DNA from: Ostreococcus lucimarinus
Taxonomy: Eukaryota
Direction: 5' to 3' (one strand)
NCBI GenBank assembly: GCA_000092065.1
Contig: CP000600.1
Length of the DNA: 64,000 nt
A program made the position numbers and the translations under genes. Positions 38,831-58,350 of this stretch are shown in pieces (the stretch's first letter is position 1; every line of letters begins with the position of its first letter). Under the pieces are notes generated by a model that saw nothing but the letters and a program-made list of their open reading frames with translations, had not been told where the DNA came from and ran no database searches.

Positions 38831-39916
38831 ATGCGTCGCGCGCTCGAGCGCGCGCTTCGCGAGCGCGCGCGCGATGCCGCGCGCGTCGACGCGCGCGCGG
38901 TGCTCGCGCGATGCGAGGCGTCGAGCGCGCGGGACGCGGCGTCGAGCGCGCGCGCGAGGCTCGCTCGGGCGACGACGACGACGCGCGCGATGGCGAGCGA
39001 CGCGCGCGGGCGCGACGCGGCGGTTCTGGCGTTCGCGCGCGTTCGTGGGTTCGCCGCGAGCGCGCGCGCGGAGACGGAGACGACGTCGACGCGCGACGAC
39101 GAAGGCGACGACGAAGGCGACGGCGACGACGAGACGACGGTGAACTCGAAACGAGAGCAGATGCGAGACGAAAGGAATTTCAACGCGCCCAACGCGCTGT
39201 GCGTGGGCAGAATTGTCGCCGGTCCCGCGCTGGCGTACGGCGTCGCGAGCGGCGCGTCGCCGGAACTCGTGCTCGGCGGCGTCGCGGCGGCGGCGTTTAC
39301 GGATTATTTGGATGGATTTCTCGCGAGACGGTGGAAGCAAGGGACGATTTTGGGGAGTTATCTCGACCCGATCGCGGATAAGGTGTTCGTTGGGTGCGTG
39401 GGGACGGCGTTGGCCTTGGAAGGGTCGCTTCCAGTGTGGCTCGTGGGGTTATTGGTGAGTCGCGACGCGATTCACGTCGTCGGCGGGGCGTGGCGACGCG
39501 CGGGCGCGTTGGGGTGGAAATGGAAAACCGTGGGAGAGTTTTTAGGATTTGACGATAAGCCCGTGAGTCGACCGCCGCCCACTGGAGCGGCCGCGCTCGC
39601 GGGGTTCGATTTTGACGAAGTCGAGCAGCTCGGGTCGAAGCGCGGGGCGCTGAGGCCGCTCTTCATCGGCAAGGTGAATACGGCGCTGCAAATGGCGCTC
39701 ATCACGTTCGCCGTGAGCGAACCAGTGTTCGCGGCGCATGCAGGATCGCCGATGATGGCGCCCGCGCTCGAGCTCGTAGCTGATAGAACAGTGCGCGTCA
39801 TTCTGGAATACGCCACGGCGGCGTCCGCCGTCGTCGCCACGGCTGAGTACACTCGCATCTTTCTCGCTCATCCCGGTTTCGACGCGGACGGGCAAATTAA
39901 AGTGAGGAAAAAGTAA
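38831..39916 (+). CDS. CRLS1-like: CDP-alcohol phosphatidyltransferase, cardiolipin synthase (CRLS1-type)-like, with an R/A-rich presequence.
   Basis: [19 protein letters not shown]...[33 protein letters not shown] contains the D(x2)DG(x2)AR(x8)G(x3)D(x3)D motif and aligns with eukaryotic cardiolipin synthase (TDLLDGFIARNW...GSALDPLADK). TM helices lie downstream. The N-terminal roughly 100 aa are low-complexity R/A-rich. Confidence 0.65.
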
Positions 39917-40031
39917 GAGCGACGCGGCGGCGAACAAGTAGTACAGAATTCTGTGGTATTAGTAATGTAAGAAGTGAATTAGATGTGTGTAAGCGGCGCA
40001 TCTATGATTCGTCGAACATGAATGGACTCTT

Positions 40032-42182
40032 CTAGCGTGAGTCGTCGATGTCTCTCATGAATCGGTGAGTGGCTTCTTCTAGCGGAGTTCGTACAACACG
40101 AACGGATTCTCGCGTGAGACGATTGCGGATGCGCATCTTGACGGCGCGCGCTCGAGGCGCGCTCCAATTGTAGCATAGCATATTAGCACAAACCAAAGAT
40201 TCGCCAGGTTGAAGGTTTCGTACGTCGCTCAAGTTGGCTTCCTGCAGTGCCGCGTTACGTGCAATGTGATCAAACCAGCGCGCAGAGTTGAACTGGTGCA
40301 AAACGTGCACCGTCGCGAGCTCGACGAGGGCCTCAGGAATCGCGAATGGGCTCGTCGTGCCGACGACGAGACGCGTGTTTGTCCGATGCATCGTTCGAGC
40401 GGCGTTCACAAGTTGACCAGCAAATCCCGCTCGCGAGCCGAGGCTGAGCAACAGATCCGCGTCATCGATTACGATGAGCTTTTTCGGTGGGGAGCGTCGG
40501 TTCCGTGCGGTCCGTTTCAACGGGAGATCCATTTTTTGAAACATGCTGAGAGCGACTTGGAAGATGGCGTCTACAAAATCCGGCTCGTACTCCGAATGCG
40601 TCACGTCGACGACGTTGAGCGCGTCGACGAGCACGGCTTGTTCGAACACGCGCATCACTACGCCCTCGACGTGAACATTTTCGTAGTTTTCGTAGATGAA
40701 TGATTTGACTTGCTGCGCGCGCGCAAGGAGTAACTGTCCACGACTTCCATCTCTCTGGGCTCTAAAGCTGTCGCACAATCCTTCAAAAAATTGTTTGAAC
40801 GAAGTCCGGTGACGAATCATCTTCAAAATCTGCTCGTCATCTTCTATGCCGAGCATAATGCACAAGTGCTCGCTCGTGAGCGAATTCCATCCGAAAAGTA
40901 GTGGCGAAACCATTCCGACGAAACCATTCCGATCGTACTCGTCGCAGATTTCTGGAGCGCGACTTTCGATATGTTTGGGCGCCGAGAGCACTTTGACATT
41001 AGGCGCGCGACAGTTGGAATTTTTGCCACAGAGCGTTTCCAAATGTAGACTCAAGACGGATAACCCGAGAAAATTCGCAAGCGATGCATCTTTAGAAAAG
41101 GCGTCGGTCGTCGAAGTGCTAAACGTAATCGCCGTCGTCCAGTCCTGTGGCGGGTCAACCATTCCCTGACGCATCAAACAGTTTTCGACGAGTACATCGA
41201 CGGTGTGAGACGTACTCGCCCCGGGTGCGCCGTACACCAGACCACAGAACGGAATGCCGACGTCCATGAACATTTCTCTCTTATCGACGAATTCGTTTTG
41301 CGCAAAATGCTTCGGAACGTCGAACAGCGTTCCCAAGACGGCCATGTCTCGAGCCGTCTCGTCGACTCTGTCGTGGCTCACAAGCGTCGGACGCGCGTCT
41401 CTCCACGCGCGGCCGACTGACCTATCGCACATGTACGCCAACACACTCGCGGCGCCGGCGGACTTGTCTAAAGCGATAGGAGAGGAGTCCGTCCCGTGCT
41501 TCGGCGAAATCTCCGCGCTGTCGTCGAAAACCGGCGCAGGCGACCCCGATCGCTCGCTCCCGGCACTTTCCAGCGCATCATACACATTCCGCACTCGCAC
41601 CGGCGGCGGCGCCTTCTGTTCCACCACGCTCGCAAATTTCGCCGCCTTCGCCGTTTCCTTCGCCGCGTGCGCCAGTTCCTGATGTCGTCTCGTCCGCGCG
41701 TGTTGCAACCAATTATTCGCCAAATTCGCCTCTCCGCTGCCCCGAATCGTCACCGCGCACGTCTCGCACGTCCTCGTCGGGAATTCCAACGCCGATTCCC
41801 CCACCGTCGCGCGCGCTCTCCCTCCCGGCTCCCTCTTCTCGAGCTTCGTCCTTCGTCGCCGCTCCGCGTTCAGCAAGTGTTCCTCCGAGTTCGCGTGTCG
41901 CCCCCACGCCGCGAAGAACTGCTTCTTATCGTCCTCGTTCACCTCGAAGTTCTCGCACAGCGTGCACTTGCGATGGTACTCCCGCTTCGGCGTCGTCTCG
42001 CGCGTCGCGCCGTCGCCGTCGCCGCGGACGCGCGCGCCGCACGCGCCGTCCCGATGTTTCGCGAGCGCTAAACTCGCGAGCGTTTCCGACGCCCCGAAGC
42101 ACACCTCGCCGCACCGCTCGCACGACGCGCACCACGCGTCGTCGTCGTCGCTTTCGTCCGACGTCTCGCTCGACGCGCGCAT
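40032..42182 (-). CDS. Protein with three N-terminal C2H2/U1-matrin-type zinc fingers followed by a large domain with a degenerate P-loop (Walker A lacking the Lys) and a Walker-B-like hhhhDD motif. Family unassigned.
   Basis: ATG at 42182 (MRASSETSDESDDDDAWCASCERCGE). CxxC...H...H units appear in CASCERCGE..HRDGAC, CTLCENFE...HANSEEH and CETCAV...HARTRRH. Downstream are GLVYGAPGASTSHTVDVLVENC (Walker-A-like) and PPKKLIVIDDADLLLS (Walker-B-like). The R-rich first 190 residues of the track ORF are rejected. Confidence 0.5.
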   Translation of the reverse strand: MRASSETSDESDDDDAWCASCERCGEVCFGASETLASLALAKHRDGACGARVRGDGDGATRETTPKREYHRKCTLCENFEVNEDDKKQFFAAWGRHANSEEHLLNAERRRRTKLEKREPGGRARATVGESALEFPTRTCETCAVTIRGSGEANLANNWLQHARTRRHQELAHAAKETAKAAKFASVVEQKAPPPVRVRNVYDALESAGSERSGSPAPVFDDSAEISPKHGTDSSPIALDKSAGAASVLAYMCDRSVGRAWRDARPTLVSHDRVDETARDMAVLGTLFDVPKHFAQNEFVDKREMFMDVGIPFCGLVYGAPGASTSHTVDVLVENCLMRQGMVDPPQDWTTAITFSTSTTDAFSKDASLANFLGLSVLSLHLETLCGKNSNCRAPNVKVLSAPKHIESRAPEICDEYDRNGFVGMVSPLLFGWNSLTSEHLCIMLGIEDDEQILKMIRHRTSFKQFFEGLCDSFRAQRDGSRGQLLLARAQQVKSFIYENYENVHVEGVVMRVFEQAVLVDALNVVDVTHSEYEPDFVDAIFQVALSMFQKMDLPLKRTARNRRSPPKKLIVIDDADLLLSLGSRAGFAGQLVNAARTMHRTNTRLVVGTTSPFAIPEALVELATVHVLHQFNSARWFDHIARNAALQEANLSDVRNLQPGESLVCANMLCYNWSAPRARAVKMRIRNRLTRESVRVVRTPLEEATHRFMRDIDDSR

Positions 42183-42248
42183 CGAGCGTCGCGTCGCGCG
42201 GAGAGAAGTGACGCGCGGGGTCGTTGACCGAGATCGACACGACGACAG

Positions 42249-42980
42249 ATGACGACGCCCGCGATCGACGAGCTCGACGCCGCGCTCGCGCTCGCGGACG
42301 ACGCGCGCGCGGCGGTGGGCGACGTTCAACGCGCGCTGCGCGCGAACGGACGCGACGCGAGGGACGGCGATGCGGTGGCGAACGCGATCCGACGGCTCGC
42401 GCGAACGGCGGAAAAGATCGACGTAACGTGGCGCGCCGTCGTCGCGAGCGATGGGTATCGATCCATGGCGCGCGAGGACGCGTTGGAAGACGGCGAGGCG
42501 CGCGAGGCGCGCGCGGGCGCGCGCGCGCGCGAAGGCGGTGATGGCGACGGGAAGGGCGCGAGCGGTTTGGCGGCGAGCGCGCGCGAGGCGAACGCGCGAG
42601 GCGGCGTGCGAGCGGAAACGTCCGCGGACGACGACGGAACCCTCGTGCGCGTGATCGCGCCCGGTGCGTTCGACGCGCGATGGCGCGCGAACGATCCCGC
42701 GAACGCGGCGACGACGACGGCGCGCGCCGTCGACGGCGGCGTCACCGCCGCGCACGCCGCGCTCTCCGACCGGTTACTCGAATTCGCCGCCGACGCGCTC
42801 GCGCGCGCGGGCGACGCCGAGGCGGCATCGATAGAAATACTCGCCTGGCTCGAGGATCTTCGCGACGTGTTCGTCGTCCCAGATTTCGCGAGCGGCGGCC
42901 GCGTGCTCGCGCCGGACCCGTCTCGCGGCGGCGTCCTCGTCCCCGGTCGCCTCCTCCCCGGTCGCGTCGCTCGCGCGTGA
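42249..42980 (+). CDS. Hypothetical protein (243 aa, Ala/Arg/Asp-rich), divergent from the zinc-finger gene (66 bp between start codons).
   Basis: ATG-initiated ORF with a non-repetitive segment ([30 protein letters not shown]...[23 protein letters not shown]). No homology recognised. It could be a GC-bias ORF. Confidence 0.3.
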
Positions 42981-43275
42981 CGTCGCGTGTAATCGACGCA
43001 TCGCGCCCCCTTTCCATCGCTCGCGCGCGCCGCCGTCTCGTCTCGCGTCGCGCGCCGCGTCGATCGACCCCCCTCGTCGACCGACTCATCGACCGTTAGT
43101 CGTCGGTGCGGTGCAAATCTCATCTCGTCGCGACGGTTCAGGACTCGTCGAACGGATTCGTCAACCGTTCACGGGCCGCGCCCTGTCGCACACCGCGCCG
43201 TCGCCGTCGACGACGACGGCGACGCGCGCGCGCGCGAGCCGCGGACTCTCGGACGGGACGCGTCGCCGTCGCGAG

Positions 43276-46200
43276 ATGGACGCGCGGACGCGCCGCGACG
43301 CCGCGACGCGCGCGCGACGCGAATGCATCGCCCGCGGCCGCGGCGACAACGGCCGCGCGCGCGCGCGCGATGACGCGCGAGGAAGGACGCGCGAGGCGAA
43401 GGGACGGCCGGCGGCGCGCGCGATGGGGGCGAGGCGAACGCGCGGATCGGGACGACGCGGGACGAATCGGCGCGGCGCGGCGCTGGCGACGGCGCTGGCG
43501 ATGGGTCTGACGCTCGCGGTCGAGGGGGCGACGTCGCCGTTTACGTCGCGCGGCGATTTAGATAACGCGATCATGGCGTGTCTGGCGGACGACGAAACGT
43601 TGGCGACGTGCAGGGACAGCGCCGCGACGCCGGTGCCGATTGGCTCGTGGGACGTCGCAGCCATCGTCGACATGTCGAGGTTGTTCGACTCCGGGTCCGT
43701 CGGACGCTTTGTGAACGTCGACATCGGTTTGTGGGACACGTCATCGGTGACCGACATGAACGCCATGTTCAAAGGTCAGACAAACTTCAACCAAGACCTC
43801 AGCACGTGGGACACGTCATCGGTGACGGACATGAGCGGTATGTTCCACGACGCGTCGAGTTTCAATCAGAACATCCCGACGTCGGGAGTACAATGGGACA
43901 CGTCACAAGTCGAGTTCTTTGATACGATGTTCAAAAACGCGGTGGCGTTCAATCAGGACATCAGCTCCTGGGTCGTCAGCGCCGCGGCAAACTTCAATTC
44001 CATGTTCTCTGGAGCGACGAGCTTCAACCAGGACATCACCGGATGGATTGGCGCCAGCGGTGCCTCCGCGGACAATATGTTCTCTGGAGCGACGGCGTGG
44101 CTCAACAACTACGGCCCGACCACAGCGGGCTCAACCACAACCGATGGTCCCGCGAGCGCGTGGGGCAAGTTATGCGCGGCGAACCAGCGCGTGGTTTCGA
44201 ACGCGTGCCAGGCGTGCCCCACCGGGAGCGTGCGCGCCGCGGGCGATAATGCAAAGGGAGTTGACACGGCGTGCGCGTGTCCCGCCAACCATTATTACGT
44301 CTCGGGCGGTGGGTGTTTGGCGTGCGCTAGCGGTCTGTTCCGTCTCGCGGGTGACGTTGCGCCCGGAGGACATACGGCGTGTACGTACGCGTCGCCGTTC
44401 ACGTTGAAGGCCGAACTCGTGAACACGATCGCGTCTTCGTACTGCCTGGGCGGCGCCGCCGCCCCCACCGGAGCTTCGTGTACGGACGGCAAGGGGTTGG
44501 GGATCGCGAATTGGGATGTCAGCGGTGTCAACGACATGGCGGGGTTGTTCCAAGCGTCCAGTTCTAGCTGGACCTCGACCACGTTCAACGCTGATTTGAG
44601 CCTGTGGGACACGTCGTCGGTGGTAGACATGAACAACATGTTCAACGGCGCGACGAGCTTTAACCAGGACATCAGCTCGTGGGACACGTCGTTGGTGGTG
44701 AACATGAACAACATGTTCAACGGCGCGACGAGCTTTAACCAGGACATCAGCTCGTGGGTGACGCAATCGGTGACGGACATGGGCGCGATGTTTGAAAACG
44801 CGGCGGCGTTCGACCAGCCCATCCCGAAGTCGGGATCACAGTGGGACACGACGTTGGTGAAGGACATGAGCAACATGTTCTTCGGCGCAGCGGCGTTTAA
44901 CCAAGACCTCAGCACGTGGGTGACGCAATCGGTGGTGGACATGAGCGCGATGTTTCAAAACGCGCCGCTCTTCAATTATAGTATGGTGACATCGGGTAGC
45001 GTTTGGGACACGTCGTCGGTGACAAACATGGACAACATGTTCAAAGACGCGGTGGCGTTCAACCAGGACATCAGCTCCTGGGTCGTCAGCGCCGTGGCAA
45101 ACTTCAATTCCATGTTCTCTGGAGCGAGGAGCTTCAACCAGGACATCACCAGATGGAATAGCGCCAGCGATGCCTCCGCGGACAATATGTTCTCTGGAGC
45201 GGTAGCGTGGATCACCGACTACGGCCCGATGACAGCGGGCTCAGTCGATGGTCCCGCGAGCGCGTGGGGCAAGATATGCGCGGCGAACCAGCGCATTGTT
45301 TCGAACGCGTGCCAGGCGTGCCCCACCGGGAGCGTGCGCGCCGCGGGCGATAATGCAAAGGGAGAGGACACGGCGTGCGCGTGTCCCGCCAACCATTATT
45401 ACGTCTCGGGCGATGGGTGTTTGGCGTGCGCTAGCGGTCTGTTCCGTCTCGCGGGTGACGTTGCGCCCGGAGGAGATACGGCGTGTACGTACGCGTCGCC
45501 GTTCACGTTGAAGGCCGAACTCGTGAACACGATCGCGTCTTCGTACTGCCTGGGCGCCGCCGCCGCCCCCTCCGGAGCTTCGTGTACGGACGGCAAGGGG
45601 TTGGGGATCGCGAATTGGGATGTCAGCGGTGTCAACGACATGGCGGGGCTGTTCCAAGCGTCCAGCTCTAGCTGGACCTCGACCACGTTCAACGCTGATT
45701 TGAGCTTGTGGAACACGTCGTCGGTGGTGAACATGAACAACATGTTCAACGGCGCGACGAGCTTTAACCAGGACATCAGCTCGTGGAACACGGCGTTGGT
45801 GACGGACATGAACAACATGTTCAACGGCGCGACGAGCTTTAACCAGGACATCAGCTCGTGGAACACGTCGTTGGTGGTGAACATGAACAACATGTTCAAC
45901 GGCGCGACGAGCTTTAACCAGGACATCCGCTCGTGGGTGACGTCGTCGGTGACGGACATGGGCGCGATGTTTGAAAACGCGGCGGCGTTCGACCAGCCCA
46001 TCCCGAAGTCGGGATCACAGTGGGACACGACGTTGGTGAAGGACATGAGCAACATGTTCTTCGGCGCAGCGGCGTTTAACCGAGACCTCAGCACGTGGGT
46101 GACGCAATCGGTGACGGACATGGGCGCGATGTTTCAAAACGCGCCGCTCTTCAATTATGGTATGGTGACATCGGGTAGCGTTTGGGACACGTCATCGGTG

Positions 46201-49200
46201 GCAAACTTCAATTCCATGTTCTCTGGAGCGACGAGCTTTAACCAGGACATCAGCTCGTGGAACACGGCGTTGGTGACGGACATGGACAACATGTTCAAAG
46301 ACGCGGTGGCGTTCAATCAGGACATCAGCTCCTGGGTCGTCAGCGCCGCGGCAAACTTCAATTCCATGTTCTCTGGAGCGACGAGCTTCAACCAGGACAT
46401 CACCGGATGGATTGGCGCCAGCGGTGCCTCCGCGGACAATATGTTCTCTGGAGCGACGGCGTGGCTCAACAACTACGGCCCGACCACAGCGGGCTCAACC
46501 ACAACCGATGGTCCCGCGAGCGCGTGGGGCAAGTTATGCGCGGCGAACCAGCGCGTGGTTTCGAACGCGTGCCAGGCGTGCCCCACCGGGAGCGTGCGCG
46601 CCGCGGGCGATAATGCAAAGGGAGTTGACACGGCGTGCGCGTGTCCCGCCAACCATTATTACGTCTCGGGCGGTGGGTGTTTGGCGTGCGCTAGCGGTCT
46701 GTTCCGTCTCGCGGGTGACGTTGCGCCCGGAGGAGATACGGCGTGTACGTACGCGTCGCCGTTCACGTTGAAGGCCGAACTCGTGAACACGATCGCGTCT
46801 TCGTACTGCCTGGGCGGCGCCGCCGCCCCCACCGGAGCTTCGTGTACGGACGGCAAGGGGTTGGGGATCGCGAATTGGGATGTCAGCGGTGTCAACGACA
46901 TGGCGGGGTTGTTCCAAGCGTCCAGTTCTAGCTGGACCTCGACCACGTTCAACGCTGATTTGAGCCTGTGGGACACGTCGTCGGTGGTAGACATGAGCAA
47001 CATGTTCAACGGCCAGATGGCGTTCAACCAACCCATCCCGACGTCGGGGTCACAATGGAACACGGCGTTGGTGACGGACATGAACAACATGTTCAACGGC
47101 GCGACGAGATTTAACCAGGACATCAGCTCGTGGGACACGTCGTTGGTGGTGAACATGAACAACATGTTCAACGGCGCGACGAGCTTTAACCAGGACATCA
47201 GCTCGTGGGTGACGCAATCGGTGACGGACATGGGCGCGATGTTTGAAAACGCGGCGGCGTTCGACCAGCCCATCCCGAAGTCGGGATCACAGTGGGACAC
47301 GACGTTGGTGAAGGACATGAGCAACATGTTCTTCGGCGCAGCGGCGTTTAACCAAGACCTCAGCACGTGGGTGACGCAATCGGTGGTGGACATGAGCGCG
47401 ATGTTTCAAAACGCGCCGCTCTTCAATTATAGTATGGTGACATCGGGTAGCGTTTGGGACACGGCGTTGGTGACGGACATGAACAACATGTTCAACGGCG
47501 CGACGAGATTTAACCAGGACATCAGCTCGTGGGACACGTCGTCGGTGGTGAACATGAACAACATGTTCAACGGCGCGACGAGCTTTAACCAGAACATCAG
47601 CTCGTGGAACACGGCGTTGGTGACGGACATGGGCGCGATGTTTCAAAGCGCGGTGGCGTTCAACCAACCCATCCCGAAGTCGGGATCACAGTGGGACACG
47701 TCGTTGGTGACAAACATGAACAACATGTTCGGCGGTGCCACGGCGTTCAACCAGGACATCGGCTCCTGGGTCGTCAGCGCCGTGGCAAACTTCGATTCCA
47801 TGTTCTCTGGAGCGACGAGCTTTAACAAGAACATCACCGGATGGATTGGCGCCGGCGGTGCCTCCGCAAACAACATGTTCTCTGGAGCGACGGCGTGGAT
47901 CGCGAGGTACGAGCACACGTCCAATCCTGGCAACAGCTTTCATGGTCCCGCGTCGGCTTGGACTGGTCCCGTTCCGTTTGCCAACTTGGCCGCTTTGCAA
48001 ACCGCCGTGACCAATTGCTTGAACAGCGCTCCGTCCGGCGCGTGCACGTGCTCGCCCAGTGTCGACTGCGGCGCCGCGCTGTACGAACCGATCACAAACT
48101 GGGACACGAGTCTGGTCGCCGACATGAATGCTTTGTTCCAAAGCGCCACTCTTTTCAACGCCAACATTGGATCGTGGAATACCGAGCAGGTGACGAGAAT
48201 GGACAACATGTTTAGCGGCGCGGCTGCGTTCAACCAGCCAATTGGCAGTTGGAACGTCACCGCGGTCACCGATGCGAGCCATATGTTTCAGGGCGCTACG
48301 GCTTTTGTTCACGACATCACCGGTTGGGTTTTATCGCAGACGCCCCAGGCGAATGTGACGTCAATGTTTGTCAATGCGATAGCATGGATAAACGAGCGTG
48401 ATCGTATAGACGGATCCGCGTCTCTCGACGGTCCACCCTCGGCGTGGTACACGCCGGCGCCGCCGCCGCCGCCGTCACCGCCGCCACCCCCGCCACCAAC
48501 GTGCGGTAACGGTGTCTACGATGCCGCTGGTACGAACCCAGATGGAACTCTTGGGGAGACGTGTGAACCGTACGGGAATTCCATCGATAACACCGTTCTC
48601 GTGCAGGGTTGCGATCCAGCCACGTGCGCGCCTTTTGAGAACTGGCAGTGCAACGATCCGTCTACGATCGGCACACCAGATTACAACTGTACGTGCAACA
48701 ATCCCGCAGGCACGTACGCGTTACCAGATGTCAATTTTTGCGCGCGCGTGAAATGCGTTTACGCAGATCGATGTCTCTCCGAAGGCCGCGGCTGCGCGCC
48801 TGGTGCTGGTGGCAACGCGTGCGACCGTTGCTACACGGCGCAAGACATCGTCGATCTCGGATTGGAAGCTTCTCTAGCCAAAGCGGGTTACTACAAAACG
48901 GGCCAAACGTGCACTGAGTGCCCTGGGACCTCGGCAGGTCAACTCTTCGCTGCCGCTACGCTTGTAGTCGTTCTGGCGTTCTTTGGTTTCAAAGCTTCGC
49001 AAGTCATGGGCCCTCAAGCGACAAACAACTTGAAGAAGATTATCGAATCTTTGCAGTTTTTTTCGCTTTCGCTGAGTATGGACATCAAATGGCCTGGCCC
49101 GGTACTTAACCTCGGCAAGTACTTGGAAGCTTTCACGTTCAGCGTCGACTTTCTGAGACCAGAGTGCGTGGCTACTGGTCTCAATTGGCTCAATATTTTC

Positions 49201-52200
49201 CTAGCGTCTGTGTTTGTTGTCCCTGCACTTATCTTTTTCATCATCGTCTTCAACAACTTCAGATCAAGGCGACGGTTCGAACGAACAGTGCGTTCAATTC
49301 ACTGCGAACGGCGCGATGGAGGTGCGATGGTATACTGGATTGAAAGACCGGGTCGTTTGTGGGGCATAAGGCGCACGTTCGAATCCAAAGGAGGAGATAA
49401 AATTGTCAAGGAATTGCAGAGGCAATACCGCTTCCGAGCCTCCCTCAGAAGCTTTGGCGTGTTGTCCATGACTGTGTTATACCTGCCCATAGTCCGTATG
49501 TGCCTCCAGGCTTTCGACTGTCTCGAAATAGACGGTATCGAGAGCACGCGTCTAGAACACGACATCGACATCGATTGCGAGAGTACTTCTCATGTGACAA
49601 TCCAGGCGGCGGCGGCGGTTATGTTGGCCATCGTCGGAATCGGTATGCCGATTTACGTCATCTCACAAGTGCGGAAACTTTCAAATACGGGGAAGTTAGA
49701 TGATCCACAAACCATCGACGCATACGGTCCATTCTACGATATATATCGTAGAGAAGATCTTACGTATTCGCACAAATTGGAGATTGCCAGACTTCGACAA
49801 ACGACGGTTCGCTCGAGATCTATTCCTCGCGGTAGCGACGATGAAGACGATCGCGAAGAAACGACGTTTGATACCGAAACTGAGCGTGTCGCTGATGAAA
49901 TTGAAAACGATATCAGACAAGATATTGAGGAACCAAACGAAGGCACTTCGTTGGAAACTACCGATGGACCCACTGACGACGTCGAGCAAGGTGAAGATTT
50001 CAACCCTGAACTCGGGAAGAAGAAAGTTTTTGGTAAAGGAAGAAAGTCAAAAGACGGGCGCTTAGCTCAAGTATTATCTATGAGTAAGTCAATGTTGCAG
50101 CGCACTCCGTCTGCGCAAGCGCGCGAGCGCGTGAAAAAGATGAGCTGGAAAGATCGGTTCTCAGTGTATTACCTCTCGGTGGAATTATGCCAGAAGAGCG
50201 GTGTCATTCTCATGACTTCGCCCTTCATCAGCGCTTCGCCTCTCAGTGGCTGGGGCCTTGTATTCATCCACTGGTTCCTCGGCATTTTCGTCTACATTTG
50301 TCAACCTTGGAGAATAATCACGTTGAGTTTCTTCGGTTTTAAGGTGTCAAATTGTCTGAACAAAGTCGAAACTATGGCGGCGTTCCTGCAAGGTGTGACG
50401 CCCGCCTTGGCGATGATATGGCCAGTTAAGCGAGACGCTGACGGCATCGTGCAGGAAAGTTTCACGCTCGAGATGATGACTGGTCTTATGACTGCCATCA
50501 TCACGGGTTTACTCGCTATTCGCATCATCGTATTCGTCGGGGAACGCGTCGCGGTCAAACGCGCAAAGATGGACATCGACAAGGAACCCGAAGCATGCAT
50601 TGAGATTGTTCGTGAACGACTCGTCGAGATGGCGAAGAAACGTGCGGTCGTGAGCTTGTTCGCGTTCAAGGCAGACTTTGATATAACACGGCGCAAAGCG
50701 CGGGCGAGAATAGAGATCACGCGTCAAGCTATGTTGACTAGAATCGACACTTTGAAGTCGGAGATGGCTAGCACCGAAGGTCAGGGTATCGATTACACGG
50801 AGCAAATCACGGCCTTGTATGAAGTGGCGAATCAGATGGCACATATCGTGAATACCGTTGTACCGATGCCTCCACCTGTTGGGCCTGCTGTAGAGGAGCG
50901 TATAGACGCTCTCGAGGCGCAGTTGTCGAAACTTTCCGTGGCCGAGGACGAACGCTACGTCGCCGCACGACAAGAGTCAGAGCCGTCGCCGAACGCTGCG
51001 GCAATGCACATAATTTTCAAGGTGCACATCGTCGATTGCATCGTTGCACAAGTCAACGAACAGCTTGAAGTATACGCGAGTGCAGAGTTAGTGAGCGATT
51101 TAGCCGTTCTTGGACGACGACATGCCGAGTTGTTGAGCGAGCAGAGCGCCATAACTTCTCAATTCGGCGACTCCGAGCTTCGTGCAACTTCAGACGAGTT
51201 ATCTTCATCAGCCGTTCCGTTACTAGAAGCGAACGAACGTGATGACTTCGAAAAGGTATCTTCCACGCTCCATCACTGTGCGAGCGTCATCGATGCGCAC
51301 GCGCAGTGGTGTATGACGCAGAGCGAGCTGTTCAGTGGCCTCAAGAGGGAGCACCCTACTTTCCTTCCGGACGAACCACCATTGACAACGGAGTGCTTCG
51401 AATCGTGCATCAAAGATCTGAAGACACATGAAAAGCAGATGGAGTTAGTTAGGACGCAGTGCATCAGCGACTGGCTTCCAATGTTCAAACATTTCGGTTG
51501 CGTCAAGTATCTCAGAGGGTTCGCCGAGCAGATTCGTAATCAACTCAGTCTCAATCTCAATGGAGAGATCACGCCAGAAGAAGCCAAGGTGGTGTATGAT
51601 GACACCGTTGCCTTCATGGATGGCTTCGCCTCGTGGTGTGCAGATTTGTGTGGCATAATCGAAACGTCAGACGTTTTCAATGAGTTTCAACCCATCGCCT
51701 CGGCCATGATGAAGAGCCTGAAGGTGATACAGATCGACGCTAAGAAGCAAAGCATGCTCGCTCAAAAAGTACTGTCGGCCGTCGACTATGCTTTGGCGCA
51801 GAAGTCCACCGCAGAGGCCGTGCGAAATAATTTGCAGCAGGCGTTGCGCGATTTAACGTCGAAAATGGAGGAGCATCTTGCCGTTCAGATGGATGAAATG
51901 AAGAATGAGAAGATCGCTCTCGAGAGAGCGTATGAAGAAGAAAAGGTGCAAACCGAGGAGGACATCAACGTCCTCGAGAAAACGTTCGCTGAGAGAAAGG
52001 CCACGATGGAGCGCGAATTTGCACTGCAGCGCGACATAGTCGAACGATTACTCGTCATGAAGCAAGAAGAGAAGGCCGCGGTCGCTCCGTCTTTGAACCC
52101 ATTCAGACGCGTACGCTTCGAGTACGAAAACGAGCTCGCGAGCGCCAATAAGGAGTGCCTCAGGATCTCACGAGCCTTGGAGAGAGAAGAGAACGTGAAA

Positions 52201-52683
52201 AATATGCAGTGTGAAAACTTGCTTCGAGCGATGCAGCAAACCGAGCGTCAGCTGCGAGCGCAGATTAAAATCCACGATTCACTCATGGCAAAGATGGAAG
52301 CCGATGTCTTGGATCACCTCAAAAAGCAAGGCAACGTGGCGCAAAAGCGAACGGCTCACGATATCGCGGCGAACAAGGCCGTGCTCGCGTCGCGAAAAGC
52401 CATCTATAAGCAGCAACGTATCGCTGCACAGCTGTACGTATCCGTAGAACGCGAGACTACGAGAGCTCAAGTCGGTCTCACGAGAACGAAACTTGCGGTG
52501 GCTAAACGTAAAGGGCTGCTTGTACGCACAACCTCGCGCCTGACGGGAAAATCCCTGCGGTCAAAATCGCGAAAGAAAGCGCACGACGAAAACGAGACGG
52601 TCAAAGACGATCAACAAGAAAAGGAGGTTGAAGATCAAACCGCGGTTGATGAAAAAAGCAACGTCACGGAGACGAAGACGTAA
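43276..52683 (+). CDS. Giant (about 3,100 aa) single-exon surface protein. Domain order: signal peptide, long arrays of DUF285 (PF03382-like, 'Mycoplasma' 26-aa) repeats interleaved with a Cys-rich module, a poly-Pro linker, an EGF/TNFR-like Cys-rich stalk, a multi-pass TM region, then a coiled-coil cytoplasmic tail of about 900 aa. Alternative start at the ATG at 43423.
   Basis: A signal-like segment, [20 protein letters not shown], is followed by more than 40 repeats of [MF]FxxAxxFNQDIS[ST]WDTSxVTDMxxMF. The Cys-rich module [59 protein letters not shown] recurs. [15 protein letters not shown] tract (about 48455-48500) precedes the Cys-rich stalk PTCGNGVYD...CTECPG. Hydrophobic helices follow, starting with [16 protein letters not shown], at about 48950-50560. 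A long E/K/Q/L-rich heptad region runs from about 50600 to 52680. The R-rich residues before 43276 are likely not coding. Confidence 0.8.
43700..47900 (+). repeat. Higher-order tandem repeat array inside the giant gene. The 78-bp DUF285 units are organised into three nearly identical segmental copies: about 44100-45200, 45200-46458 and 46458-47900.
   Basis: Long identical strings recur. 'ctacggcccgaccacagcgggctcaaccacaaccgatggtcccgcgagcgcgtggggcaagttatgcgcggcgaaccagcgcgtggtttcgaacgcgtgccaggcgtgccccaccgggagcgtgcgcgccgcgggcgataatgcaaagggag' occurs at about 44110 and 46470, with a near-identical copy at about 45210. The roughly 170-bp string beginning 'gcggtggcgttcaatcaggacatcagctcctgggtcgtcagcgccgcggcaaacttcaattccatgttctctggagcgacgagcttcaaccaggacatcaccggatgg' occurs at about 43935 and 46300. 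Confidence 0.9.
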
Positions 52684-52711
52684 ATTGAAATTTCTGTCAT
52701 AATACAGTAGT

Positions 52712-53581
52712 TTATTTCTTCGTGTCGTCAAGTTCGTCGTCGTATTCGTGAGCCGCGCGCCCGCTCCGTACGGCGTTTGCGACTTTCGAGCGGGCGCTCC
52801 CATCGGCGTATCGACCGATGTGTTCTAAATACGCGGCCCAATCGGGCAACGTTTTACGCACCTGTTCGCGAGCCAGCATCGCGTCCAACCACGCGTGATA
52901 TGAAGCCAGCGCGGCGGTTTTCGGAATCGCGTAGTCGGCTCCGCGATAGTGTTCAAATACCGGAAGCCGCCAAGCCCACGGGAACAACGCGTAATCCACC
53001 AATCCAGGAGCCTCGCCGGAGTAAAACGGTGATTTCTTATTCTCGTCGCACCACGACGCAAACCTCTCCAACCCTTCAATAATCGCCTCAAACGCCTCGC
53101 GCTGCTCTGCGGGATTCTGACGCACCAGCACGTGATAATACTTGCTGCATATCTGTTTATTCACCCAATCCGCGTCCACTCTCGCCCGCGCTCGCTCGTA
53201 CGGACAGCTACTCATGATCGGTGTCGTCCCTCCCCTCACGATTTCGTCGATAAACTGCACGCACACCAACGACTCCGTGACCACGTTCTTCGTCGCGTCG
53301 CCTCGCTTCGCGTTATACGTCTCCGGCGACACGAGCGTCGGCACCATCCCGAGTGGGTTGTGTTTCAGCAGCGTCGGTGATTTGTAGTGGTACCAGTTTT
53401 CGTGCGCAGTCTCGACGCTCGCGTCCGTGGCTCTGCGTTTCTCCCAGCCGAGCGCCTCTTCCCAGTCGTACGTCAGGTGACCGTGATGATGTTCCAACGC
53501 CAGCGTCGCGCGATGCGCGAAAGGACAGAACCAGGCGCTGAAGTAGTGGAGGTGTGGCACCGCCGCACCGCGAGCGGACAT
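52712..53581 (-). CDS. GST: Glutathione S-transferase (thioredoxin-fold N-terminal plus helical C-terminal domain).
   Basis: ATG at 53581. HLHYFSAWFCPFAHRATLAL...GMVPTL is the GST N-terminal betaalphabeta with a Cys/Ser active-site region. The C-terminal helical domain includes LVDYALFPWAWRL. Confidence 0.78.
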   Translation of the reverse strand: MSARGAAVPHLHYFSAWFCPFAHRATLALEHHHGHLTYDWEEALGWEKRRATDASVETAHENWYHYKSPTLLKHNPLGMVPTLVSPETYNAKRGDATKNVVTESLVCVQFIDEIVRGGTTPIMSSCPYERARARVDADWVNKQICSKYYHVLVRQNPAEQREAFEAIIEGLERFASWCDENKKSPFYSGEAPGLVDYALFPWAWRLPVFEHYRGADYAIPKTAALASYHAWLDAMLAREQVRKTLPDWAAYLEHIGRYADGSARSKVANAVRSGRAAHEYDDELDDTKK

Positions 53582-55021: not shown

Positions 55022-55407
55022 CGCTCCGCGTTCGAGCTCGCGTCTCTCGCGCCTCGTTCGCCTCTTCCGCGCGTCGCCGTCGCCGTTCGCGCACCTCGTT
55101 CGCTCGCGCGCGTCCGTCGTCGTCCTTCCTCGGTCGTCCGCGCCGTCGCGTCGTCTCGTCTCTCGTTCGCGCGCCGCCTCGCGCGCGTCCTCCCGTCGCG
55201 CGCGCGCGCGCGCCGCGCCCCGATCCGCGCGCGCCGCGCGCGCCGTCGTCGTCGTCGCTCGCGGTCGGGTCGTAGCGCCGCGTCGGCGCGCGCGCGCGAC
55301 CGCGTCGGCGCCGCATCGACGAACGCGACGCGGCGCACACTGCCGCGCGTCGCCGCGTCGCCGTCGCGTCGCGGTCGCGCGCGCGTCGCCGTCGCGCGGC
55401 GCGCGCG

Positions 55408-58350
55408 ATGACGACGCGCGCCGCGCGCGCGCCGCGCGCGGCGTCGCCGCGCGGCGCGGACGCGACGCGACGGCGCGACGGCGCGATCGACGCCGACGAC
55501 GCCGACGCGACGGCGACCGCGCGCGCGCGCGCGAGCGCGAACGACGCGCGCGCGCGATCGGCGGCGGTGCTGGACGTCGTCGATCTCACGCTCGACGTCG
55601 AGGCGCCGCGCGCGGCGACGGCGACGGCGACGGCGACGGCGGACGCGCGAGGCGACGCGACGCGCGGCGACGACGCCGAGGCGGTGAAGATCCTCGACGA
55701 CGGTTTGCCGACGTCGAAGCCGAAGGCGAGGGATGGAAAGCCGACGGCGCGATCGGGTGAGAATGGAAAGTCGCGCGCGTCGGGGTCGGGGCGGATCGAA
55801 CGCGTGGCGGAGGTGCTGCAGTCGCCCGAGAAGGCGTGGCCGCGAGAGGAGGCGGCGGCGGAGGACGACGACGACGCGAAGGTTTCGGTGAGTTTTGAAC
55901 TCGAGTTCTGCGCGGCGATGCGAGAGGGGTTGGAGGGAAGACGGACGGAGGCGATGGAGGCGATGGAGACGCTCGAAGCGACGGTGGGATCGAGGGTGTT
56001 TCAGAACGCGGACGCGGCGGCGGCGGAGGCGCGGACGAGGACGAGGAGCGCGGCGAAGCGCGCGCGTAGGATTTTTCGGGAGGAAACTAAGCTTTGGGCG
56101 GCGGCGGTGGTGAAAGCGCAGCAACTGACGATAGACGATGACGTGCCGTCGACGTCGGAACCCGTCGCGATGGAGTTGCCGTTTTGGCAGCGCATCTCGA
56201 GCGAGCACCTGGGCGCGTCGAGCGCGAGGAATACGAAGATTTTCACGCAGCGCACCGAACGGCCGTATTCGAGTGATCCGACCGATGTAAGCGGCTGGAA
56301 GCTGCAAACAATAGTAGGGCGACAATCTGTACCTCGAATAGACATCGGTAGCGCCAAGGCGGTGCCGCCCTACGCTTACTTTGCGTACTCGACGCACTGC
56401 AACTCGTACGAGGCGGAAGGAAACGTCTCGCGCCTACTCTTCAGGGACGACGATGGAGAGTTCTTAGAATCAGATCCCGTCGATCGGCGCGAAGACGAGA
56501 GTAATGAGCTCACTCGCGAGCAGGAAATCATCATGTGCGCGATATGCGCGGAGTTTAGCGAGTTCATTTTGACAGAAAAAGAAGTCGTGCGAGGGGTGAA
56601 TCGCGAAGACGGCGTGAAAGCCGTCGTGGTACAAACAGCCGAATATTTGAACTTGGACGAAAACCAAGTCAAGGATTGGTTTGATGAGACGCGCACGAAG
56701 CACAGCACGAGCCGTGCATGGTGTATGTTTCTCGAAGTTGCCTCGCACGTACGCAAGTTGATGGGCTTCTCCTCGGCGCATTGGCGCGCGAAGATGGCAA
56801 ACACATTCAGCGTTCTCGAAACTCTCGGGATCAGCGAATTGTTCTGGCGGAAGTTTTCGCGAATCATCATCAATTGTCCGACGCTCGCTCCGTTGAAAAA
56901 GCCTGTCATCGTGTTTGACAATCTCAACGAAGCCATGGATCAGCTCGCCGGCATGTTTTGTCCGCGATGCTTCATCTTTGATTGCAGAACGCACGGGTCG
57001 TTGCAGCCCAAGTCGGAAGGCAGGAAGCTTGATGCGGAAAGAAAGCTTGCATGGCGCGAGCGCATGGCAAAGAGCGGCATGTCTGCGGAAAAGCCGTTAG
57101 CTGAGCGACGATGTTCGACAGATTGCTGGTATCAAACAGAAGAGTACAAGTACTACTCTGCGCAGACAACCTGCGCACCATGCGATCCCACAGAAACTCT
57201 CAATCGTCCGTCGACGAAAGATCCGTTCATCGAGACGACGAGGAAATGGCGCAACGCGATGGATATTGAAGTCTTGAAGAAGGCTGTCAAAATAATCGGT
57301 GAGAAAACCACGGCGTGCGAGGCAGCGTTGTTCTTTGGCCGTCGTCGCACGTGCGCCGAAGTCGGGAAGCAAATGCACTGTTTGGATCTCATCAACCTTG
57401 GAACTGTGGTGAAGGAAGAAGAGCGCGACGCGATGGATGAAGATACCGACGAATTGAGTAATCCGAAGAAGCGCAAACGCGCGCCGACGGGGGTCAAAAA
57501 TCCAACAATTGCGCGACGATTGAAGATGCAAAAGGATGCCGATTTTCTGGAAACGCAATACTCCCCGTGCGAATGCGTCGGCGCTTGTGACGCTAACACG
57601 TGCTCCTGCATTAAGAATGGTACCTTTTGTGAGAGATTTTGCAACTGTGGACCGAAGTGTCACAACGAGTTCGAGGGTTGCAAGTGCGACAGTACGAAGC
57701 GCGCAACGTGCGGCACAAGAACGTGTCCGTGCTACGCCGCCGGTCGCGAATGCACGCCAGATAAATGTAAACGGTGTTGCAAGACCGCTGATGCGTACTC
57801 TTTGCCCGCTCGTAAAAGGTATGGCCTCGTCGATCCGAACATGCAACTGCCCATGCCGGCGTTTCCGTGTGAGAACATGAAGCTACAACTTCGACAGAAG
57901 GAGCACATTTGTTTGGGTCGAAGCGGTGTTGCCGGTTGGGGTGCGTTCGTGTTGAAAGGCGCTCGGAAAGGAGAGTTCATCGGCGAATACGTCGGCGAAC
58001 TCGTGACTCAGGACGAAGCCGAACGTCGAGGAACGGTGTACGATGTCAACAACTGCTCGTACTTGTTCAATCTCAACAGCGAATGGTGCGTCGACGCTCA
58101 ATACAGAGGGAACAAACTGCGCTTTGCCAATCACTCGAAGAACCCGAATTGCGTGCCTCGCGTTCTCGCGGTGAATGGTGATCATCGACTGGCGCTGATA
58201 TCAGACAAAGACATCAAACCAGGCGATGAATTACTGTTCGACTACAATTACAAGGACGAAGTCGCACCCGACTGGCACGAGAAAAACGCATCGACGTTGC
58301 CCAAGTCGAAGCACCTTCCAACGAAAAGCGCGAAGAAATCATCGAACTGA
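55408..58350 (+). CDS. EZH: Enhancer-of-zeste-type SET-domain histone-lysine N-methyltransferase (PRC2 catalytic subunit homologue), with a CXC pre-SET domain.
   Basis: ATG at 55408. The C-terminal CXC domain is CSCIKNGTFCERFCNCGPKCHNEFEGCKC...CGTRTCPCYAAGRECTPDKC. The SET domain follows: GWGAFVLKGARKGEFIGEYVGELV...NNCSYLFNL...RFANHSKNPNCVPRVLAVNGDHRLALISDKDIKPGDELLFDYNY. The N-terminal third is low-complexity R/A/D-rich. Confidence 0.85.
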   Translation: MTTRAARAPRAASPRGADATRRRDGAIDADDADATATARARASANDARARSAAVLDVVDLTLDVEAPRAATATATATADARGDATRGDDAEAVKILDDGLPTSKPKARDGKPTARSGENGKSRASGSGRIERVAEVLQSPEKAWPREEAAAEDDDDAKVSVSFELEFCAAMREGLEGRRTEAMEAMETLEATVGSRVFQNADAAAAEARTRTRSAAKRARRIFREETKLWAAAVVKAQQLTIDDDVPSTSEPVAMELPFWQRISSEHLGASSARNTKIFTQRTERPYSSDPTDVSGWKLQTIVGRQSVPRIDIGSAKAVPPYAYFAYSTHCNSYEAEGNVSRLLFRDDDGEFLESDPVDRREDESNELTREQEIIMCAICAEFSEFILTEKEVVRGVNREDGVKAVVVQTAEYLNLDENQVKDWFDETRTKHSTSRAWCMFLEVASHVRKLMGFSSAHWRAKMANTFSVLETLGISELFWRKFSRIIINCPTLAPLKKPVIVFDNLNEAMDQLAGMFCPRCFIFDCRTHGSLQPKSEGRKLDAERKLAWRERMAKSGMSAEKPLAERRCSTDCWYQTEEYKYYSAQTTCAPCDPTETLNRPSTKDPFIETTRKWRNAMDIEVLKKAVKIIGEKTTACEAALFFGRRRTCAEVGKQMHCLDLINLGTVVKEEERDAMDEDTDELSNPKKRKRAPTGVKNPTIARRLKMQKDADFLETQYSPCECVGACDANTCSCIKNGTFCERFCNCGPKCHNEFEGCKCDSTKRATCGTRTCPCYAAGRECTPDKCKRCCKTADAYSLPARKRYGLVDPNMQLPMPAFPCENMKLQLRQKEHICLGRSGVAGWGAFVLKGARKGEFIGEYVGELVTQDEAERRGTVYDVNNCSYLFNLNSEWCVDAQYRGNKLRFANHSKNPNCVPRVLAVNGDHRLALISDKDIKPGDELLFDYNYKDEVAPDWHEKNASTLPKSKHLPTKSAKKSSN

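Follow-up and report, generated by a model that had tools for sequence, protein, structure and literature searches.

We analyzed a 64,000-nucleotide stretch of contig CP000600.1 of Ostreococcus lucimarinus (GenBank assembly GCA_000092065.1; hereafter the window), and found in it a giant single-exon gene that carries three consecutive higher-order blocks of 1110, 1254 and 1434 bp. Blocks 1 and 3 share a near-identical tract of more than one kilobase, whereas block 2 differs from both. All three lengths are multiples of 3, and the 9.5-kb open reading frame (ORF) remains open across every block junction. Each block consists of the C-terminal part of one PARCEL/DUF285 domain, a cysteine-rich linker, an N-terminal cap (N-cap), and the N-terminal part of the next domain. 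The repeated DNA is very probably the coding sequence of duplicated modules in the extracellular part of a receptor-like protein.

Two DNA repeat families follow the blocks along the gene. One lies at 44142-44441, 45246-45545 (98% identity), and 46506-46805 (100%); the other starts at 43894, 45004, 46258, and 47692, with spacings that equal the three block lengths. An exact k-mer diagonal search of 43000-53000 revealed repeats of 434 bp (43937 and 46301), 261 bp (44372 and 46736), 354 bp (44659 and 47110), 143 bp (45414 and 46674), and 136 bp (44767, 45946, and 47218), together with many identities of 60-143 bp at offsets of 1104, 1260, 1179, and 1272 bp. The 434-bp element is the longest exact direct repeat of the whole window, where ten shuffles gave values of 15-18 bp. 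These results reproduce the long-repeat coordinates (around 43935 to 46470) given by an initial annotation of this DNA, and the 434-, 261-, and 354-bp matches are the long identical diagonals sought by the self dot-plot it had proposed. Its sub-repeat of 78 bp has to be corrected: with Tandem Repeats Finder, the basic period comes out at 75 bp (25 codons), next to one of 162 bp, i.e., 75+87, the 87-bp units being variants of the basic one. The gene thus shows a nested, in-frame periodicity at two levels, 75 bp and about 1.2 kb, with long near-identical diagonals.

Whole blocks are 90-96% identical (blastn) and differ in the number of basic repeats they contain. We aligned their linker-centred cores over 711 bp (U1, 43927-44637; U2, 45037-45741; U3, 46291-47001). 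U1 and U3 are separated by one substitution (44371 C vs 46735 G) in a shared tract of 696 bp. After an indel of 87 bp, that is, one repeat unit, their identity resumes for 354 bp, which brings the total for the near-identical tract to one substitution in 1050 matched bp and one unit indel. For comparison, U2 differs from U1 and U3 at around 36 sites, including a 6-bp indel, or about 5% over the linker core. Hence, the three copies described initially are real as blocks, but the near-identity attributed to all of them holds only for copies 1 and 3 (about 99.9%). The divergence between U1 and U2 is uneven, with 8.0% to the left of position 261 and 2.7% to the right (permutation p = 0.035). The near-identical tract starts in one conserved 75-bp repeat core (ATGTTCAAA) and stops in another (TGGGACACG).

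At the protein level, anchoring on the MF.....FN motif yields 39 repeats in five domains (D1 to D5), each with an N-cap and a C-terminal cap (C-cap). The repeats are spaced by 25 or 29 residues, except for one pair in D5 with 27. We clustered the 75/87-bp units at a nucleotide identity of at least 95% into types named A to Z, and the resulting map shows that the core G H I J is common to D2, D3, and D4, and that the series D-E-linker-N-cap is identical at the D1/D2 and D3/D4 junctions. D2, D3, and D4 have 8, 10, and 12 repeats. The three linkers, of 70 residues and eight cysteines each, follow D1, D2, and D3 (from nucleotides 44173, 45277, and 46537). Every block keeps the reading frame, the cap structures, and all cysteines. 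The coordinates are collected in Table 1. The real start of the gene is probably the ATG at 43423, upstream of which metagenome gene callers chose an ATG at 43276. Signal peptide and membrane topology were judged by eye and with a hydropathy scan; they suggest a receptor-like membrane protein at the cell surface with the repeats outside, and a long cytoplasmic tail that is also predicted as coiled-coil.

Table 1. Coordinates of the giant gene, its protein domains, and its higher-order repeats in the window.
Feature	Position	Strand	Remarks
Giant single-exon ORF, 3190 codons	43111..52683	+	ORF translation, orthologue gene models
Signal-peptide-like N-terminus (putative)	43423..43521	+	read by eye from the translation
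PARCEL/DUF285 domain D1	43516..44172	+	repeat types A B C D E, N-cap and C-cap
Cysteine-rich linker 1	44173..44382	+	70 aa, 8 Cys, two CxnCxxC half-units
PARCEL domain D2	44383..45276	+	N-cap, F G H I J K L M
Cysteine-rich linker 2	45277..45486	+	diverged beta-type copy
PARCEL domain D3	45487..46536	+	N-cap, F N G H I J O P D E
Cysteine-rich linker 3	46537..46746	+	equals linker 1 except 44371 C vs 46735 G (His/Asp)
PARCEL domain D4	46747..47970	+	N-cap, Q N G H I J N R S T U V; no linker after it
PARCEL domain D5	47971..48435	+	W X Y Z, single copy in the window
Proline-rich hinge and cysteine-rich juxtamembrane stalk	48436..48930	+	
Multi-pass membrane module	48934..50550	+	about 6-7 hydrophobic helices, hydropathy scan
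Long charged C-terminal tail	50551..52680	+	mostly helical, presumed cytoplasmic
Higher-order block 1, 1110 bp	43927..45036	+	C D E, linker 1, N-cap, F G H I J
Higher-order block 2, 1254 bp	45037..46290	+	K L M, linker 2, N-cap, F N G H I J O
Higher-order block 3, 1434 bp	46291..47724	+	P D E, linker 3, N-cap, Q N G H I J N R S
Degenerate partial fourth block	47725..47991	+	T U V and C-cap, without linker, 69-74% identity; repeat family copy at 47692-47991
Near-identical tract	43937..45012	+	partner 46301-47463
Near-identical tract, partner	46301..47463	+	pairs with 43937-45012

The assignment of the repeats to PARCEL/DUF285 is strong. The Pfam model DUF285 (PF03382) matches the protein in 14 stretches with E = 0 and 1098 bits for a cut-off of 25, and among the NCBIfam PARCEL models TIGR02167 reaches 168 bits for a cut-off of 30. 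The repeat consensus is V.DM..MF..A..FNQDIS.W. DUF285 was the only family that Pfam reported, with no match to any LRR_x (leucine-rich repeat, LRR) model, and the LxxLxLxxN motif is absent; DUF285 itself presumably belongs to the Pfam LRR clan. A further profile, that of the Mbov_0838 PARCEL lipoproteins (NF045896), scored 675 bits, above its cut-off of 500, but this score is summed over 13 stretches that match only profile positions around 265-363. A member would be a Mycoplasma lipoprotein with a lipobox and full-length similarity over about 433 aa; the window protein is eukaryotic, has about 3100 aa, and lacks a lipobox, and we rejected this membership.

We modelled D2 together with linker 2 using AlphaFold2 and an alignment of 14 sequences, obtaining a mean predicted local distance difference test (pLDDT) of 81.8 and a predicted template-modelling score of 0.80. 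The repeat part is of high confidence and the linker poor (pLDDT below 50). In a Foldseek search of the Protein Data Bank (PDB), all six matches with E <= 0.001 (down to 2e-4) are to the Nogo receptor, an LRR protein, and the weaker ones are nearly all LRR proteins as well (TLR9, TLR13, LGR4/5, TpLRR). Sequence identity in these matches is 8-14% and template-modelling scores (TM-scores) are low (0.2-0.5), which indicates that curvature and repeat geometry differ from those of LRR structures. The PARCEL domains are therefore predicted to form an LRR-like solenoid of 25- and 29-residue repeats with caps: PARCEL/DUF285 by sequence, and by the model an LRR-type binding solenoid in its working. A search of the PDB by sequence found no relative of the PARCEL block. 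The 70-aa linkers gave only sub-threshold matches in Pfam (CC domain, E = 0.067; TNFR_ELAPOR1_6th, E = 0.099), and none that was significant to PF07699 (Ephrin-receptor-like/GCC2_GCC3) or to TNFR-type domains.

Four metagenome contigs of the same species (L001, L002, L003, and L007) were set against the window. Downstream of 47530, the first three are 99.5-99.7% identical to the window and L007, which comes from an independent sample, 99.77%. L001 and L003 keep the gene order of the window on both sides of the giant gene; with L002 and L007, the downstream GST gene is the only shared neighbour. The first three contigs assemble with a single linker, and the array is hard to assemble, with many contigs ending inside it. 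This is what would be seen if the real gene had fewer blocks and faulty assembly had produced either the three blocks or the near-identity between blocks 1 and 3, an explanation that we consider very unlikely. The blocks are not identical, since each has private variants, its own repeat composition, and in-frame junctions that respect domain boundaries. L007 begins inside the gene and reads ...G H I J K D E, linker, N-cap, Q N G H I J R S T U V, D5, with 11 repeats in D4 instead of the 12 of the window. Its linker is thus preceded by a non-first domain, which means that multi-block alleles exist outside the window's assembly. L001 and L002 hold the D3-specific repeat types O, G2, H2, F2, and N1 at 98-100% identity, hence D3-like sequence is present in those strains. 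By their names, the single-linker contigs were made with MEGAHIT k141 and SPAdes, from which one would expect a collapse of repeats that share exact matches of 143 bp or more.

The middle domains of these three contigs are hybrids of the D3 and D4 repeat types of the window. Their one unit resembles U1/U3 over most of its length but has short U2-like tracts (alpha/beta mosaics), and could come either from assembly collapse or from real recombinant alleles. Scans of the metagenome DNA with a degenerate pattern for the block-2-specific C-cap peptide and with a 42-nt stretch invariant in all blocks returned no match. The array is also a general assembly break point, as the initial annotation had foreseen: contigs L004, L006 (see below), and L007, which stem from independent assemblies, as well as those with P0001 and P0002, all end inside it, the PARCEL array lying at the contig ends 1-2672, 1-660, and 1-44 of L004, L006, and L007, respectively.

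Other lineages have amplified parts of this gene too. A search with the C-terminal 1427 aa retrieved 57 protein clusters. Of all the proteins retrieved, only those of the window, L004, and L006, which are long contiguous assemblies, contain exact protein repeats of 90 aa or more; in short-read contigs none exceeds 21 aa. L004 is a syntenic orthologue from a sister lineage (about 92% nucleotide identity). Its contig name points to a long-read assembly, as do frameshifts of the kind left by uncorrected long reads. In L004, another block, which corresponds to 47455-48237 of the window and has no linker, is present in tandem at least four times, with copies of about 1 kb. The D5-like module count of L004 is hence at least 4, compared to 1 in the window, which shows that block number changes on the timescale of species. 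The part of L004 upstream of the first linker is missing. L006, a family member with around 54% protein identity on a 300-kb polished contig, has three tandem modules made of an N-cap, 4, 6, or 8 repeats, a C-cap, and a linker, with 92-93% DNA identity. L004 and L006 amplified different blocks, and did so independently.

We also looked for a close viral homologue of the block and rejected the candidates, as they are generic PARCEL domains with 43-46% identity to D2, on giant-virus contigs. Such domains are encoded by the IMG/VR GVMAG contigs L008 (856-2259) and L009 (77-1024), and these matches fit a report that DUF285 genes are abundant in certain giant viruses of algae (PMC10720644).

How could the blocks have arisen? 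As every domain is built of near-identical 75/87-bp units, these may serve as substrate for misaligned homologous recombination. Unequal crossing-over or misaligned-template repair between units of different domains would then duplicate or delete whole blocks, in events that would stay in frame, and gene conversion would subsequently copy tracts between blocks. The latest exchange between blocks 1 and 3 is very young (about 0.1% divergence); block 2 is older or derives from a diverged allele. The position of the tract breakpoints in conserved repeat cores fits unequal homologous recombination together with gene conversion. Two simpler histories were rejected. A single tandem triplication cannot make copy 1 equal to copy 3 and leave copy 2 different. 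Tandem duplication of a double block of 2364 bp is at odds with an identity that covers only 1.1 kb of the 2.36-kb offset, the rest having a different architecture. In other words, the data call for at least two events, non-adjacent gene conversion, or recombination between alleles. The suggestion made initially, of a recent expansion by unequal crossing-over or of homogenisation, is thus supported by the tract ends, by the small distance between U1 and U3, and by the amplifications in other lineages.

The homogenisation half of that suggestion can be taken further, to an old triplication kept uniform by gene conversion (concerted evolution) instead of a recent duplication. We see this as a serious possibility to which we would nonetheless give somewhat less than an even chance. 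Blocks 1 and 3 being alike with block 2 different, over 1.1 of 2.36 kb, fits non-adjacent conversion better than one duplication, and the uneven U1/U2 divergence and the alpha/beta mosaics of the same-species units point in the same direction. However, the mosaics could stem from path switching during assembly, and L004 amplified a different block, the D5-like one; because its upstream part is missing, a shared triplication is neither shown nor excluded by it. Concerted evolution is moreover compatible with the duplication of coding modules by recombination, and the two do not exclude each other.

We then turned to divergence between strains. Over about 22 kb, the background divergence among the same-species contigs is around 0.2% per 500 bp. 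In the ectodomain it rises to 3-7% at 43000-45000 and to 1.3-4.3% at 47500-48000, a peak more than 10-fold above the surrounding genome. The difference between U1 and U3 (about 0.1%) is below the strain background and far under the 3-7% of the locus. Synonymous divergence (dS) is around 0.025 in the N-terminal ectodomain, compared to about 0.005 for the membrane and tail region (comparisons with L002 and L003). The ratio of nonsynonymous to synonymous divergence (dN/dS) in that N-terminal part ranges between strains from 0.73 to 1.86, being 0.73-0.88 in two of three comparisons and 1.86 in the other, and is about 1.07 between U1 and U2. The ectodomain is variable in length and hypervariable in sequence between strains. 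The copy-number hotspot proposed by the initial annotation finds support in the divergence peak and in the block and repeat content by which same-species contigs differ, with the reservation that short-read collapse confounds part of these differences.

Values of dN/dS near 1, both between blocks and in two of the three strain comparisons, would also be expected if the array were a neutral by-product, with repeats that expand and contract without function and a divergence due to relaxed constraint and paralogous conversion. We find this rather unlikely, as the frame, the caps, and all cysteines are kept in every block, the ectodomain has about five times the dS of the membrane and tail region, one dN/dS reaches 1.86, and the architecture recurs in three lineages, although the counts of differences are too small to decide.

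A more far-reaching proposal goes beyond duplicated extracellular modules and sees in the gene a hypervariable recognition receptor of the cell surface, an accordion driven by recombination in which block number, repeat number, and surface residues turn over faster than the remaining genome, under diversifying or balancing selection, on a conserved multi-pass membrane and coiled-coil chassis that carries the signal and belongs to a so far undescribed modular family. We judge it unlikely in this full form; were it true, prasinovirus attachment, bacterial partners, or gamete recognition would be examples of the selective agents. Several points weigh against our main reading, that of duplicated modules in a surface protein. 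The number of three linkers in the window comes from a single assembly, and L001-L003 have one linker each, meaning that either the window is unusual or the short-read assemblies are collapsed. Paralogous mis-pairing or chimeric short-read contigs could inflate the strain divergence, and the dN/dS values derive from small counts (7-45 differences). Finally, the surface location is suggested by a signal-peptide-like N-terminus and from hydrophobic helices downstream, both of them predictions.

The C-terminal 1250 aa or so (48934-52680), the chassis that carries the array, have no match in Pfam or PDB and no informative fold match; a PDB sequence search with the C-terminal 1427 aa was likewise negative. 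The predicted-structure model of the chassis has moderate confidence (pLDDT 71.6). With a 636-aa query for the membrane module, a full HMMER scan of 1.84 billion representative proteins yielded no more than 195 relatives (E <= 0.001). Closer relatives have the chassis without PARCEL repeats, and distant ones carry other ectodomains: ephrin-receptor-like (PF07699), FG-GAP, Kelch, or periplasmic-binding-protein-like. In distant relatives, a DUF7630 module also lies just upstream of the stretch that matches the membrane module. These combinations suggest a modular family of receptor-like proteins. We observed as well that G+C content drops to 0.51-0.53 at 48000-52000, in the 3' half of the giant gene, compared to 0.62-0.71 in most of the window.

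Several known systems resemble this gene in part. PARCEL ORFs have been catalogued in Micromonas and Ostreococcus (Roske et al. 2010, PMC2996958), and PARCEL proteins are described there in marine green picoalgae as membrane-associated, with tracts separated by spacers (PMC2996958). The window gene shares with them the 25-residue tandem repeats, the MF..A..FNQDIS.W signature, and strong matches to the family's profiles. Unlike in the catalogued members, whole domains and their cysteine-rich linker are here duplicated as in-frame blocks of 1.1-1.4 kb, and a large multi-pass membrane chassis of eukaryotic type carries the repeats. The long dyad symmetry of the DNA, from which PARCELs take their name, was not seen either: a scan of 44600-45100 found no inverted repeat of at least 14 nt within 80 nt, a scan that short self-overlapping palindromes may escape, and the only visible dyad is the self-complementary AACATGTT core of the N-M-F codons.

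Ectodomains of the LRR type (Nogo receptor, Toll-like receptors, BspA-type TpLRR), whose usual role is extracellular ligand binding, are similar in having a curved solenoid with N- and C-terminal caps, which in our case is predicted, but they differ from it in the LxxLxLxxN motif and in geometry, as reflected by the TM-scores above. In microbial repeat adhesins, such as yeast FLO/ALS and the variable lipoproteins of Mycoplasma, in-frame repeat recombination alters protein length and creates variability between strains. The differences in length and sequence between same-species contigs recall these adhesins, but the latter mostly have short, low-complexity, Ser/Thr-rich units, while the unit here is a folded block of many repeats, and the window gene is known from its sequence alone. 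Finally, the two nested levels, the breakpoints in repeat cores, the mosaic tracts, and the lineage-specific expansions are reminiscent of plant LRR resistance genes and of satellite higher-order repeats. In contrast to resistance-gene clusters and non-coding satellites, the array of the window lies wholly inside one coding exon. All told, the gene encodes a putative PARCEL-repeat surface protein with recombination-driven, in-frame higher-order repeats, and the phenomenon in general is well known.

The window around it has a G+C content of about 0.62 and tightly packed genes. Neighbouring ORFs encode SET-domain, PHD-homeodomain, WD40, ankyrin, GST, and RNase E/G proteins, the last with CBM20, and look eukaryotic and green-lineage-like. 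By themselves, these features point to a compact green-lineage eukaryote, probably a picoalga of the Mamiellophyceae type. Four proteins of the window had no exact match in a collection of 15 billion proteins. The RNase E/G protein (58433-61237, minus strand) has its CBM20 starch-binding domain at the N-terminus, and most of its metagenomic homologues show the same pairing. Upstream of the giant gene lies a 907-aa ORF (40032-42755, minus strand) with no Pfam match, whose synteny is kept in L001 and L003; its region diverges from L001 by 1.6-2.8% at 40000-41000, above the background of 0.2%. A smaller peak of strain divergence occurs in the 39000-39500 bin (3.6% relative to L001). Long imperfect (CG)n-like tracts are found near gene starts at 38837-39019 and 55197-55556 (Tandem Repeats Finder period 2, with 87 and 177 copies). 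Rfam and tRNA scans of the window gave no match, nor did a scan for bacterial promoters and terminators, which is not suited to a eukaryote.

In short-read metagenome assemblies the gene seems to be collapsed or broken, and catalogues that rely on such assemblies probably understate how long and how diverse it is. For naked marine picoalgae, contact with viruses, bacteria, and mates is made by very few surface proteins, of which, to our knowledge, almost none has been characterised. Within about 22 kb of a genome that is otherwise about 99.8% identical, no other stretch varies as much between strains as the locus described here. Variation in blocks would change the number and the surface of the ligand-binding solenoids at the cell surface, which might, more speculatively, alter recognition by viruses, bacteria, grazers, or mating partners. 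As the locus changes by gain and loss of whole domains, it is a candidate for variation in host range or recognition.

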